Assembly: GCA_963743885.1 (NCBI GenBank)
Contig: CAVURJ010000001.1
Coordinates: 355,173-419,172, forward strand
DNA: 64,000 nt
Direction of reading: 5' to 3'
Source of the DNA: Candidatus Moraniibacteriota bacterium
GTDB lineage: Bacteria > Patescibacteriota > Minisyncoccia > Moranbacterales > UBA1568
Shown here: positions 17,373 to 24,305 of the stretch, in pieces
Numbering within the stretch: position 1 is the first letter of the stretch
Layout of the letters: every line of letters begins with the position of its first letter
The notes under the pieces: model-generated
What the model was told of the DNA's origin: nothing
Databases searched by the model: none
What the model saw: only the letters and a program-made list of their open reading frames with translations
Made by a program: the position numbers and the translations under genes

Positions 17373-17696
17373 ATGCCTTTTCAAAATATTTCTACTTATT
17401 TAGAGGTTAAACTTCTAAGCAGAAGAATTTTTTGGCAGCGCCAGAGACCCAGGAAACACGTCTGCGGGGGCGGAATCGCCTCGTCCCCATTTCTGGAAAA
17501 ACAGAAGGAAATCCTTGATAAGATGGATAGATAAAAGAGGCTTCGAAAGCCTCTTTTATGGCGCCATTCGCGACCCTTTACAGAATCGAAAAAATGTGCT
17601 ATAATGGAATGTTTGTGGAGATGCTGAGAGGCATATCCGGAACCGCCATCTTTCCGGGCGTATCGGAAAAATGTATCTTGAAAAGGAGATGACGCC

Positions 17697-18323
17697 ATGG
17701 AAACCCATGTCCCCATCGAAAGTGTTACCCCTGGTCAAGCGGGGAAGCTGTACGACATGTTCGTCGCGAGCTTGTGCAAGAGCGGCGCTCAAAAGGAGCC
17801 CTCGCAACAAGTGATCGAACATCAGGGCACGCAGGTGGTTCGCGATATGGTGGCCGTGTTCTGCAAATATGTGGAAGCGATTAGCAACTTAATCGTCCGT
17901 CACGCCACTGTGAATCGCACCCGCACCCCGACGGAAGCGATCGATGCGACTGGTCGGAACAAGTATCTTACCGATGATGTCGTCAAGACGATGCCACGAG
18001 GCGAGGGCGACGAAGTGGACGTGGTCTTCTTCAAGCCCGACGAGTCGGCATACGACAAGCATGGCCTGATCAGCGACGACGAGGTCGCCAGGCAGTACGA
18101 GCTGCGCGGTTTCAAGCCCGCTGACCCGTATGCGCTCGCTGCCGTCAACGAGGCCGATCCGGCGTTTGCTGATGAGCATCCCAATGGTACTCATTGGCAG
18201 GATGCGAATGGCAACTGGTGCTATGCGGCCTTCGGTCGGTGGCGCGACGAGCGTGGCGTGCACGTCCACCGGCACGGCTACGACTGGCGTGGCCGCTGGT
18301 GGTTCGCTGGCCTGCGCAAGTAG
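17697..18323 (+). CDS. DGR target (variable) protein; C-terminal variable repeat, probable C-type-lectin-fold ligand-binding domain
   Basis: 208-aa ORF with RBS aaggag; C-terminal 32 codons are homologous to the template repeat 18742..18839 with adenine-specific differences; ends ...WWFAGLRK. Confidence 0.8.
   Translation: METHVPIESVTPGQAGKLYDMFVASLCKSGAQKEPSQQVIEHQGTQVVRDMVAVFCKYVEAISNLIVRHATVNRTRTPTEAIDATGRNKYLTDDVVKTMPRGEGDEVDVVFFKPDESAYDKHGLISDDEVARQYELRGFKPADPYALAAVNEADPAFADEHPNGTHWQDANGNWCYAAFGRWRDERGVHVHRHGYDWRGRWWFAGLRK
18223..18320 (+). repeat. DGR variable repeat (VR), about 96 bp, at the 3' end of the target gene
   Basis: about 80% identical to the TR; every internal difference lies at a TR adenine; shared 3' block tggtggttcgctggcctgcgcaa is a candidate IMH. 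Confidence 0.85.
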
Positions 18324-18369
18324 TCCTCTGGACTTTGGATTTTGCTCTGACCTTTGAGCTTAGTCCTTA

Positions 18370-18401
18370 GCCCTTTGACCCCGCATTTTACCAACATGGT
18401 A
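18370..18401 (+). terminator. GC-rich hairpin plus T-run downstream of the VR (terminator and/or DGR homing-associated hairpin)
   Basis: ccccgca-N17-tgcgggg followed by tttcatttttt, about 50 nt after the target-gene stop. Confidence 0.5.
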
Positions 18402-18741
18402 GTGCGGGGTTTCATTTTTTCAATTTCTTACATTTTGATATACTGAAACTGGTAGTAGGCGAATCTGGAGGTGATTACGGTTGCTTCCGGCCGAATCCAG
18501 TATCCATACATCGAGAATATCTTCGGACTACGGTTCAGGGTAGGGTGATGTATGCAGACACTTCATCCTTCGATAAGACTCAGGATGACCCCGAGTTTGT
18601 CGATGGGTCAAAAATGAAGATACTTGGTATAGGGCACTATGGCATTTGAGATGCCGAATCCGATTCAATTCCGAGAGTTCGTCTCTGCCTAGTCGGCGGA
18701 TGAAGAATCAAGGAATGGTGGCATGGGCGGTGCCTTATACG

Positions 18742-18839
18742 ATGCGGCCTTCAATCGGTGGAACGACAAGCGTAACGTGAACGTCAACCGGAACGACAAC
18801 GACTGGAATGACAACTGGTGGTTCGCTGGCCTGCGCAAC
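18742..18839 (+). repeat. DGR template repeat (TR), about 96 bp, adenine-rich (many AAC codons)
   Basis: same orientation as the VR; noncoding although ORF finders call 18723..19040; abuts the 3' end of the avd-like gene on the opposite strand. Confidence 0.85.
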
Positions 18840-18844
18840 TCTCT

Positions 18845-19243
18845 TCATTTCTCTCCCTTCCTTGTGTTGGGAGAGTTTTGTTTCAAGAGTTGTCCGTTCC
18901 AGCCGCCGAGCATCCGCCCGATTTCGTCGATCTTTTCGGAAAGTGCGATATACTTCTTGGTATCGACCGATTTCGTTTCCCAGAGGACGAGCAGGAGAAC
19001 TTTGAGTGTGTCGACTTTTCGTATCGCATGGCGGACATAGGGCATCTTTTCCTGCGGCGAGAGGAAAGCGGCTGCCGAGACGCATTCGATGCACTCTATG
19101 AAAATATGATCGATTCGTTGGCCGAGAGAATAGCGATGCGTCTTGGGAAGCGAAGAAAGAATATTGTACCAGAATAAATAAGCATCCTTTATCTTATGCA
19201 AGACAGGCACAAGTCTGGGGGGGGTAACTCCAGGAAGCATCAT
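18845..19243 (-). CDS. avd: DGR accessory variability determinant (Avd), four-helix-bundle protein (23S rRNA-intervening-sequence protein family)
   Basis: 132 aa; pattern Y..L....Y.IL..LPKTHRYSLG.RI....I...E....A...............K.....LL.L...........S.KIDEIGRMLGGW matches Bordetella phage bAvd and other DGR Avd proteins. Confidence 0.8.
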   Translation of the reverse strand: MMLPGVTPPRLVPVLHKIKDAYLFWYNILSSLPKTHRYSLGQRIDHIFIECIECVSAAAFLSPQEKMPYVRHAIRKVDTLKVLLLVLWETKSVDTKKYIALSEKIDEIGRMLGGWNGQLLKQNSPNTRKGEK

Positions 19244-20347
19244 AGCAAAACAAAAAAGAAATTAGCGGCTGCCTATGATGATATCATATCTCTTGAGAAT
19301 CTTCTCGATGCCTGGAAAGAATTCCTGAAGGGGAAAAAGAACAAGCAGGATGTCCAGGCATTCGAAGCGCGTCTCATGGACAACCTCTTCTCGCTCCATG
19401 AAGACCTGAAGCACAAAACCTACGAGCACGGTGGCTATCAGGCTTTCAAGATAAGTGACCCGAAGCCGCGCGATATCCACAAAGCCTCGGTACGTGACCG
19501 GCTCATCCATCACGCCATCTACCGAATCCTCTATCCGTTCTTCGATACGCTCTTTATCGCCGATTCATATTCTTGCCGCGAAGAGAAAGGCACACACCGG
19601 GCACTTGATCGTTTCCAGGCCTTCGCTCGGAAAGTCTCGTGCAATCACACAAAGACCGCCTGGGTGCTCAAGTGTGATATCCGGAAGTTTTTCGCGTCGA
19701 TTGATCAGGATATTCTACTTAGTATCTTACAGGAGCGGATACCGGACCGGGACATACTGTGGCTTTTGGAGAAAGTGATAGGAAGTTTTTCCTCTACCTG
19801 TTGTCATCCCGGGCTCCCGCCCGTACCGAACCGGTGCGTTCGGGCGGGTGACCCGGGATCCAGAGGGGATGGATTCCGGCTCGGGGGCCGGAATGACAGA
19901 GAAGAGGATTCTATGAGAAAAAATGGGCTCCCACTTGGCAACCTCACTTCGCAGCTTCTCGTGAATATCTACATGAACGAATTCGACCAGTTCGTGAAGC
20001 ATCGCCTGAAAGCGAAATACTCTATACGTTACGCAGATGATTTTGTCTTGTTTTCAAGAAACCACGAAGAGCTTGATGGCTGGCTTATCCTCATCACGGA
20101 GTTCCTTTGGGAACAGCTTCATCTGAAGCTCCACCCAAACAAGGTCTCTATCCAGACAGTCGCTTCGGGTGTGGACTTCCTTGGGTGGACACATTTTCCT
20201 GATCATCGGGTGCTCCGAGGAGCGACGAAGCGGAGGATGTTCCGGAAAGCGAGTGAGAAGAATGTCGCTTCATATATTGGATTGCTCTCGCATGGGAATG
20301 GGTACCGACTCCAAAAGATGTTGGCAGAGCGTTTTGGTGTGGAGTGA
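19196..20347 (+). CDS. DGR reverse transcriptase
   Basis: VRDRLIHHAIYRIL...FIADSYSCREEKGTHRALDRFQ is nearly collinear with Bordetella bRT; YADDFVLF catalytic motif; LGNLTSQ motif 4 (the I/LGxxxSQ DGR signature); ATG start overlaps the divergent avd start by about 48 nt. Confidence 0.9.
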   Translation: MQDRHKSGGGNSRKHHSKTKKKLAAAYDDIISLENLLDAWKEFLKGKKNKQDVQAFEARLMDNLFSLHEDLKHKTYEHGGYQAFKISDPKPRDIHKASVRDRLIHHAIYRILYPFFDTLFIADSYSCREEKGTHRALDRFQAFARKVSCNHTKTAWVLKCDIRKFFASIDQDILLSILQERIPDRDILWLLEKVIGSFSSTCCHPGLPPVPNRCVRAGDPGSRGDGFRLGGRNDREEDSMRKNGLPLGNLTSQLLVNIYMNEFDQFVKHRLKAKYSIRYADDFVLFSRNHEELDGWLILITEFLWEQLHLKLHPNKVSIQTVASGVDFLGWTHFPDHRVLRGATKRRMFRKASEKNVASYIGLLSHGNGYRLQKMLAERFGVE

Positions 20348-20421
20348 TGCAAAGGTACTGAAACAGTACGCGCGCTTTACAGCGACGTAAAAACGTGCTA
20401 TACTGATAGGGTAGTGGAAAG

Positions 20422-20460
20422 GCGGGTGGTCTCGGAAACGGGACGCCCGCTTTTCTTTTT
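20422..20460 (+). terminator. hairpin plus T-rich tract downstream of the RT
   Basis: gcgggtggtctcggaaacgggacgcccgc followed by ttttcttttt, then a second long imperfect hairpin at 20461..20538. Confidence 0.45.
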
Positions 20461-23171: not shown

Positions 23172-24305
23172 TTGAATTTTATGCTCATCGGTATTGATGC
23201 TTCGCGGGCGTTTCTCAAGCGGCGGACAGGCATCGAGGAATACGCGTATCAGACGATCAAACATTTGCGGACGGCTATCCCGGTGACGGATAGTGTTGTT
23301 TTATATGTTCGAAAAAAATTGGAAATTGGTCCGCCGGCTGGCGGATGGAAATTGGAAATTCGCACGCCAGAGATAGACTTTGAATTACCGAAAAACTGGC
23401 ACGTGCGCGCCTTATGGGCTCCTCGTTTTTGGACACAAGTAGGGCTTTCACTTGAGATGCTTCTCCGGCGCCCGGATGTTCTTTTTGTGCCAGCCCATAC
23501 GGTTCCAATCATCCACCCGAAAAAGACTATCGTGACGGTCCATGGCCTGGAATACGAATTCTGTCCCGAAGCGTATCCGTTTCTTGCACGTCTCTATATG
23601 CGCTTTTTCATCCGGCACTCATGTCGTGTGGCGAGTACGGTAATCTGTGTATCGGAGAATACCAAGAGGGATGTGATGCGGCTTTATGGTACGCCGGAAG
23701 AAAAAATACGGGTGGTGTATGAAGGTTTTGAAAGAATCAAGAATCAAGAATCAAGAATCAAGAACGGAATTCAAAAACCGTATTTGTTATTCATCGGCAG
23801 GCTTGAGGAGAGAAAAAATCTCAAGAGAATCATAGAGGCTTTTGAAATTTTGAAAAAGTGGCACGGCATCCCGCATGATTTGATGCTTGTCGGGAAACCC
23901 GGATATGGGTATGGGGGCATAAAATCCTTGATTCTCAATTCTCAATTCTCAATTCATCTCAAAGAGCTGGGATATGTAAGCGAGGAAGAGAAGTGGAGTC
24001 TCTTGGCAAATGCTGATGTATTCCTTTTCCCGACGCTCTATGAGGGATTCGGTATCCCGGTACTCGAAGCACAAGCGGCTGGTGCGCCGGTCGTCGCGTC
24101 GAATACGTCTTCTTTGCCCGAGGTGGGCGGTGAGGGGGCGGTCTACGCTGATCCTTTGAGTGCGGAAAGCATCGCGGAAGCTATCCAGAAGCTCCTTTCG
24201 GACGAAGCCTTTCGAGATGATATAATAAGGAAAGGTTTGGAAAACGTGAAGCGTTTCAGTTGGCATGGATGTGCAGGTGAGATTGCGAGCTTATTGAGGA
24301 AGTAA
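23172..24305 (+). CDS. family-4 (GT-B) glycosyltransferase; contains two heptanucleotide tandem-repeat tracts
   Basis: C-terminal EGFGIPVLEA...G.PVVAS GT4 motif; (gaatcaa)x4 at 23734..23761 and (attctca)x3-4 at 23931..23958 lie inside the CDS. Confidence 0.85.
   Translation: MNFMLIGIDASRAFLKRRTGIEEYAYQTIKHLRTAIPVTDSVVLYVRKKLEIGPPAGGWKLEIRTPEIDFELPKNWHVRALWAPRFWTQVGLSLEMLLRRPDVLFVPAHTVPIIHPKKTIVTVHGLEYEFCPEAYPFLARLYMRFFIRHSCRVASTVICVSENTKRDVMRLYGTPEEKIRVVYEGFERIKNQESRIKNGIQKPYLLFIGRLEERKNLKRIIEAFEILKKWHGIPHDLMLVGKPGYGYGGIKSLILNSQFSIHLKELGYVSEEEKWSLLANADVFLFPTLYEGFGIPVLEAQAAGAPVVASNTSSLPEVGGEGAVYADPLSAESIAEAIQKLLSDEAFRDDIIRKGLENVKRFSWHGCAGEIASLLRK

Follow-up and report, generated by a model that had tools for sequence, protein, structure and literature searches.

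A chromosomal CPR DGR of B3 layout with a putatively separate template RNA and a candidate switch repeat at the avd/RT junction

The window (i.e., the whole 64-kb stretch of DNA that was analysed) contains a complete DGR, whose four components are flanked by housekeeping genes. This cassette is an ordinary chromosomal DGR of the CPR/Patescibacteria, constituted by a target gene with its VR, a TR, an avd gene on the opposite strand and a reverse transcriptase (RT) gene, in the layout named B3. The account that best explains the whole, and which we regard as likely, combines this layout with separate transcription units and with a tract of eight G residues (G8) that would serve as a reversible switch of the RT. 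For CPR DGRs at large we tentatively propose that a hypermutable repeat at the junction of avd and RT makes the mutagenesis machinery phase-variable, and that the template is a stand-alone non-coding RNA of ~430 nt with a structured 5′ domain. CPR DGRs are very abundant and their hosts are uncultured. Taken alone, a divergent avd is one further example of a known layout and changes little; conversely, as far as our search shows, the slippery repeat at the junction and the structured leader of the TR are undescribed, since the literature searched on DGRs with homopolymers, poly-G, phase variation or structured RNA yielded the RT-10 motif as its one relevant item; Paul et al. (2017; PMC5436926), the principal paper on CPR DGRs, lay outside the scope of that search.

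The target gene (17697–18323, plus strand, 208 aa in the ORF list) gave empty family scans with Pfam and NCBIfam, and carries at its C-terminal end the VR (18223–18319, plus strand), a 97-nt repeat that lies 519 nt upstream of the TR and ends 1 nt before the TAG stop codon at 18321–18323. The TR (18742–18838, plus strand) is AAC-rich and has an IMH*-like 3′ end, GGTGGTTCGCTGGCCTGCGCAA. Along the 97-nt pair, 17 of 17 mismatches fall on TR adenines, all of them from A in the TR to G or C in the VR, and the two repeats are identical over their last 22 nt and diverge directly beyond; the pair thus bears the mark of adenine-specific mutagenesis. Two characters place the cassette among DGRs: the TR/VR differences are confined to TR adenines, and the target ORF has the VR at its 3′ end, where both repeats finish in the same GC-rich sequence (IMH/IMH*). 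Directly 3′ of the VR and of the target stop, at 18324–18378, short repeats of the CTTTG/CTTNG type (…GGACTTTGGATTTTGCTCTGACCTTTGAGCTTAGTCCTTAGCCCTTTGACC) were observed, a pattern kept in a spacer alignment of 107 loci; they may act in cis, either in the integration of cDNA or as a site bound by protein.

The RT gene (19196–20347, plus strand) encodes 383 aa with a match to RVT_1 (E = 5e-25), and its translation displays the motifs LGNLTSQ and RYADDF, which fit the DGR clade ([I/L]GxxxSQ in motif 4, and the YxDD box, here YADD). The protein is 55–73% identical to CPR DGR RTs encoded in cassettes with a TR/VR pair; judged by its motifs, the RVT_1 match and this identity, we assign it to the DGR clade. 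Between motifs 3 and 4, the protein alignment places an in-frame insertion of 36–37 codons (about 19806–19918), GC-rich and strongly hairpinned (dG of −63.6 kcal/mol for the fold of 19795–19925), which is single-copy in the window and missing from all relatives examined, including those 71–73% identical; it could be a small inserted element.

With the RT as query, 160 related loci (numbered within L001–L183) were collected, 80 from species-representative genomes and 80 from metagenomes. Almost all belong to Patescibacteria/CPR, the closest (71% identity) being a Moraniibacteriota MAG. A MurA-type gene (PF00275) lies downstream of the DGR in the window and also in the closest relatives L167–L171, whose RTs are 72% identical to that of the window, and because this neighbour is kept, the cassette seems to reside in the chromosome and to have been inherited at this site, not to have moved recently. 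A scan of metagenomes returned no near-identical copy of the window (best match 61% identical), and an exact-protein search with the neighbouring MurA for other assemblies of the organism returned a single short contig.

The repeat at the avd/RT junction

The overlap of avd and RT contains a G8 homopolymer (19217–19224; C8 when read along avd), which is thereby part of both ORFs; no other G/C run in the 64-kb window reaches 7. The only other sizeable simple repeats in the window are heptanucleotide tandem repeats, (AAGAATC)x4 and (GAATCTT)x4, at 23732–23759 and 48343–48370. A simple repeat occupies the avd/RT junction in about 90% of the 160 relatives. The run, read on the plus strand, goes from G7 to G16 with a mode of G10, and about 129 of ~155 loci have at least 7 Gs; in the others its place is taken by (GT)n, (GA)n, (CT)n, (TGGC)n or (TGATTGC)n, or by degenerate purine runs, such as the GGGAGGG or GAGGAGGAGGGGG versions of L035 and L070. 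The non-G units, found in at least 12 loci, have repetitiveness alone in common. Across 971 kb of related loci, G/C runs of at least 8 number 124 at the junction versus 4 elsewhere.

Further, among 11 groups of contigs whose flanks or RT proteins are identical, 5 differ in repeat length alone. The variable groups comprise (GT)9 versus (GT)8, G11 versus G8, and three with G9 versus G10, one of which unites six independent assemblies that agree without a mismatch over 1,691 nt; this variation was seen in relatives, and some of the G9/G10 differences are possibly homopolymer consensus errors in low-coverage assemblies. Another group (P0074), with six contigs of one organism, is G10 throughout, and the group of the closest RT relatives (P0002) is uninformative on tract length because its tract lies inside the RT ORF used for exact matching. 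A conserved position, a replaceable unit and a polymorphism of length alone are, in combination, what characterizes hypermutable contingency repeats, and G8 has the form that defines such a repeat, i.e., a run of mutable length (at least 7 for G/C) in a 5′ coding region.

The avd and RT genes diverge from a junction too short for two promoters, with the conserved, length-polymorphic repeat at its core. In most relatives this repeat lies between the two start codons, while both ORFs of the window begin past it and read through it, a geometry that produces their overlap. When 127 distinct loci were classed by the start of the RT, 96 began after the repeat, 20 read through it from an upstream start and 11 had no in-frame start; the read-through class (~16%) includes the window and its closest relative, and the repeat is outside the RT ORF in 76% of relatives. 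In the window, the ATG at 19196, upstream of the G8 tract, is the sole candidate start of the RT. The original prediction that this gene has no alternative ATG was borne out, as none occurs in frame before the conserved YDDIIS region; the downstream non-ATG start that it had named as a way of removing the overlap is not available either, since the same frame from 19196 to YDDIIS also contains no GTG or TTG.

The eleven loci with no in-frame start (L008, L041, L055, L075, L088, L115, L121, L127, L130, L135 and L143) retain an intact RT body, and in ten of them a tract change of ±1 restores both an upstream RT ATG and an upstream avd ATG, as would be expected of 'off' alleles. These two restorations are counted as one line of evidence because they are geometrically coupled, at least in part, both ATGs being antisense of in-frame CAT codons. 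An in-frame avd ATG past the repeat was found in 11 of the 20 read-through loci versus 16 of the 96 with an RT start after the repeat (p = 7e-4). Across the tract, the frames of avd and RT relative to each other depart only weakly from uniformity, and the statistics on the frame of the upstream Avd ATG versus the tract are marginal and carry no weight in this account. The consequence of a length change for avd can be read in one group (P0006), where G10 gives a 132-aa ORF from an ATG past the tract and G9 a 121-aa ORF from a TTG after it. In silico, changing the tract of the window to G6, G7, G9 or G10 cuts the RT to 9–23 aa and the ATG-started Avd to 15–18 aa, and leaves the GTG and TTG starts at avd codons 12 and 15 unaffected.

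Slipped-strand changes of ±1 or ±2 at G8 would, on this basis, remove the RT and the long form of Avd, and the tract would work as a reversible on/off switch for mutagenic retrohoming. As a direct prediction from the reading frames of this window, a frameshift switch of the RT is plausible; that the junction repeat is in fact a functional switch we judge to be near an even chance, leaning slightly towards doubt. A simple frameshift switch is not the general mechanism, given that the repeat lies outside the RT ORF in the 76% of relatives noted above and that many TTG/GTG starts of avd follow it; in that majority class, the repeat being non-coding for the RT, any effect has to come through the avd start or through 5′ untranslated regions that overlap.

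The tract might instead be a fixed cis element, acting as a Shine-Dalgarno (SD)-like or standby site for the RT or as a structural element of the mRNA, with length differences that are neutral or sequencing noise and no switch involved; we consider this somewhat unlikely. The commonest position of the RT ATG, at +14 from the last G (about 40 loci), would suit such a site, and GGGGG is able to pair with the anti-SD CCUCC by the rules of base pairing, but thirteen nucleotides are long for SD spacing, and the RT ORF of the window encloses the tract. The purine-rich degenerate versions of L035 and L070 would likewise agree with a fixed element, whereas the at least 12 loci with one of the non-G units listed above in its place do not. 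Finally, several groups with identical flanks display no length variation, yet (GT)9 versus (GT)8 and G11 versus G8 between identical flanks are improbable as base-calling errors. If the repeat is a true switch, a targeted hypermutation system would be under stochastic control, the target gene would be diversified in just part of the cell population at a given moment, and DGRs that look intact but are inactive in metagenomes would be accounted for.

Transcription of the template repeat

The spacer between VR and TR (~340 nt) is strongly conserved in DNA across 107 loci, even though the RTs of these are 55–60% identical. It contains a likely terminator of the target gene, read from the sequence at 18379–18421 (plus strand) as a hairpin, CCCCGCA...TGCGGGG, followed by a T-run. 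Next, the promoter scan found a promoter-like site for a TR RNA, TTTTCA-16-TGaTATACT (18417–18444, plus strand), with a predicted start at about 18451; the T-rich tract ahead of its −10 box is kept in the 107 loci, and in 60 aligned loci the −10 box 'TAnAnT' stands at a fixed distance from the invariant GGTAGTAGG.

The segment that follows, at 18451–18741 (plus strand, ~290 nt), is a conserved and structured leader, as supported by RNAalifold and covariation controls. The covariation model comprises six helices, namely P1 (18467-76/18479-88), P2 (18505-12/18547-54), P3 (18518-28/18533-42), P4 (18627-38/18729-40), P5 (18641-45/18651-55) and P6 (18668-71/18713-16), of which the long-range P4 stops one base short of the TR. 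RNAalifold on 60 sequences gave 49 pairs, 46 of them with compensatory double changes. In an independent count, 93.9% of cells were paired versus 36–50% in controls with slid partners, and double-change cells numbered 683 versus 117–183 in the slid controls; 0 of 500 shuffles reached the observed values. In relatives, the leader measures ~230–300 nt between the conserved −10 box and the TR, retains the six helices, and has invariant loops (CCGAATCC, AAAAAATGAAGATACTTGGT and CCGAATACGATACA). Searches against Rfam 15 with the region of the window and 7 related loci matched no family, the RT-1 to RT-19 motifs included.

Directly 3′ of the TR (18839–18884), a conserved CGCAAC-TCTCTTCATTTCTC tail is followed by the hairpin CTCTCCC/GGGAGAG and TTTTGTTT, which the terminator scan scored as an intrinsic-terminator-like element at 18852–18884 (plus strand). 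In 40 loci, the hairpin and T-run are kept with differing stem sequences, which argues that termination is under selection. On the other strand, this hairpin and T-run fall inside the last ~13 codons of avd, so that the C-terminal tail of Avd (KQNSP...GEK) is encoded by the complement of the terminator; positions 18839–18884 are hence of dual use, with a likely terminator on the plus strand and the avd stop codon and C-terminal tail on the minus strand. The avd gene and the template RNA would in this manner share one sequence, serving as terminator on one strand and as the tail of Avd on the other.

From these elements we infer that the cassette would run as separate transcription units, with the TR carried on its own RNA of ~430 nt (about 18451–18884), made of leader, TR, short tail and terminator hairpin, whose ends would be set by the promoter and the terminator. 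This RNA would be co-transcribed neither with avd nor, largely, with the RT, and its leader and tail presumably fill the roles that flanking RNA (the avd 3′ end and the spacer) plays for the Bordetella bRT-Avd complex. An apparently discrete, structured template RNA with defined ends would offer a construct for in vitro reconstitution or for reprogramming of a CPR DGR. The original prediction had held that the TR RNA could not be co-transcribed with avd, and this stands: avd is divergent from the RT and convergent with the TR, and therefore there is no avd-TR-RT co-transcript from which the TR RNA could derive. It had also suggested a promoter for the TR/RT transcript inside avd, which is unsupported for the TR, since the TR is upstream of avd and has its own conserved −10 box, leader and terminator; a promoter inside avd could thus serve the RT alone.

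The way in which the RT itself is transcribed leaves room for another possibility, namely that TR and RT lie on one long plus-strand transcript from 18417–18444, the polymerase passing the hairpin at 18852–18884 and crossing avd in antisense, and the RT being expressed without a separate promoter. Termination is seldom complete at such sites in general, and the promoter scan revealed no convincing plus-strand promoter in 18885–19195; moreover, the candidate −10 box beside the tract is unassociated with the position of the RT start. Nonetheless, a hairpin and T-run maintained after the TR despite differing stem sequence speak against routine passage, and the read-through RNA would be fully antisense to the avd mRNA, so we rate the single transcript as unlikely and retain separate units as the preferred reading. 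The box in question, an extended −10 TGGYAAAAT on the plus strand to the left of the tract, was tried as a promoter of the RT and rejected: it occurs in 43% of loci whose RT starts after the tract versus 38% of those with RT read-through, i.e., with no association to RT start class, and it is better explained by the Avd codons Ile-Leu-Pro plus a TTG start.

Three near-alike promoter-like boxes were observed in the region, before the target gene, before the TR RNA, and before a short hairpin downstream of the RT. The third, TTTACA-17-TGcTATACT, lies just past the RT stop (20375–20460; compare 17576–17624 and 18417–18451), is 73% identical to the promoter region of the target gene, and is followed by GGGTAGTGG, which resembles the start of the TR RNA (GGTAGTAGG), and then by a GC-rich hairpin with a T-run. 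This element may be a small RNA or a murA leader.

The avd gene and the order of the cassette

The avd gene (accessory variability determinant; 18845–19243, minus strand) was recognized by Pfam and NCBIfam matches and by homologues in relatives. Its ORF matches the Pfam family bAvd, PF22296, with E = 3.8e-12 and 47.1 bits, over the gathering cutoff of 40, and the NCBIfam equivalog DivGenRetAVD (NF033474) with E = 2.9e-19 and 69.3 bits, under the cutoff of 80. Its product would measure 132 aa from the ATG at 19243, 121 aa from the GTG at 19210, or 118 aa from the TTG at 19201. The stop codon (18845–18847) leaves a gap of 6 nt to the end of the TR at 18838, in good agreement with the ~5 nt that had been predicted, and the predicted overlap of ~16 codons with the RT is equally confirmed, as it spans 48 nt (16 codons) from the ATG at 19243 to the ATG at 19196. 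The non-ATG starts of avd at codons 12 and 15, which the original prediction had marked for checking, are present: codon 12 is GTG (19210–19208) and codon 15 is TTG (19201–19199), and TTG/GTG are enriched at both positions in relatives; with them the overlap shrinks to 15 or 6 nt but persists.

One alternative is that the Avd-like ORF is untranslated, being a decayed or chance frame, and that the overlap is therefore not real. The sub-cutoff equivalog score (69.3 versus 80), a search of PDB sequences with Avd that returned no significant match, and the lack of an obvious Shine-Dalgarno sequence before any of the candidate starts could be taken in its favour; they are outweighed by a bAvd match above the gathering score and by phmmer E-values of 1e-19 to 1e-80 to relatives, in 145 of which the ORF is intact, and we find this alternative very improbable.

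A minus-strand avd divergent from the RT, as the original prediction described it, is thus supported by the profile matches, and the same arrangement was found directly upstream of the RT in 145 of the 145 loci with a detectable avd, including 75 of the 75 genome loci with enough flank; the loci lacking an avd match mostly lack upstream flank. An adenine-biased TR/VR pair was detectable in 111 related loci, in all but one of which TR and RT share a strand and the distance from the TR end to the avd stop is −14 to +47 nt (one outlier at +78), with a modal distance of 6 nt as in the window and a VR located ~420–520 nt further upstream. This recurrence implies that the layout is neither chance nor misassembly. 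An assembly inversion of a colinear avd-TR-RT order, raised in the original prediction should related genomes have a colinear avd, has practically no chance of being correct, and nothing was found in its favour: many independent studies and assemblers yield the same minus-strand avd in the 145 loci, the TR adjoins the avd stop likewise in 111, the layout is catalogued by Wu et al. (2018; PMC5758913), and flipping avd alone would produce TR-avd-RT, which differs from the canonical order.

The same source also corrects the notion of an unusual architecture. Wu et al. (2018; Nucleic Acids Res 46:11; PMC5758913) list architecture B3, 'TR-(avd)-RT', as 90% of their CPR set, and the window shows precisely this succession: TR at 18742–18838 (plus), avd at 18845–19243 (minus) and RT at 19196–20347 (plus). 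The divergent-avd layout is already catalogued as B3 and, with 145 of 145 relatives sharing it, is unusual only with respect to the Bordetella phage.

Comparison with known systems

[quoted passage not shown] (2018; PMC5758913), and the nearest relatives of the window are Moraniibacteriota and other Patescibacteria MAGs; promoters, a TR leader, a terminator overlapping avd and a repeat at the avd/RT junction are not described in the text consulted. The window is one of the ~16% of loci whose two ORFs both begin past the junction and overlap by up to 48 nt, and its RT carries an extra insertion of 36–37 aa relative to B3 relatives.

The DGR of Bordetella phage BPP-1 (mtd-avd-TR-brt) shares with the window a DGR-type RT with [I/L]GxxxSQ and YADD, a protein of the bAvd family, adenine-specific TR/VR changes, and a VR at the 3′ end of the target with an identical GC-rich IMH/IMH*-like end. 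Unlike in BPP-1, the avd gene of the window follows the TR and is read from the other strand, and the TR is preceded in its RNA by a structured leader dedicated to it, where BPP-1 has avd coding sequence. In BPP-1, priming of cDNA synthesis reportedly takes place from the ~140-nt spacer between TR and brt; no obvious equivalent is seen in the window, where a conserved tail of ~45 nt and a hairpin follow the TR.

A parallel to the leader is the RT-10 RNA motif (Weinberg et al., 2017; PMC5737381), a structured RNA that BPP-1-like DGRs carry between TR and brt. In both cases a conserved structured RNA forms part of the DGR template transcript, but RT-10 is 3′ of the TR, whereas the leader of the window, of about 230–300 nt in the group, is 5′ of it.

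Contingency loci provide the remaining comparison, exemplified by the poly-G tracts in ORFs of Campylobacter and Neisseria and by (TA)n between the divergent hifA/hifB promoters of Haemophilus influenzae. As in these, the junction repeat is located at the 5′ end of an ORF or between divergent genes, its unit is replaceable while its position is conserved, otherwise identical sequences of relatives differ in its length only, and some genes are intact save for a ±1 offset. It differs from them in that the tract is outside the RT ORF in most relatives and in that the likeness is one of sequence; furthermore, the function placed under control would itself be a targeted mutagenesis system.
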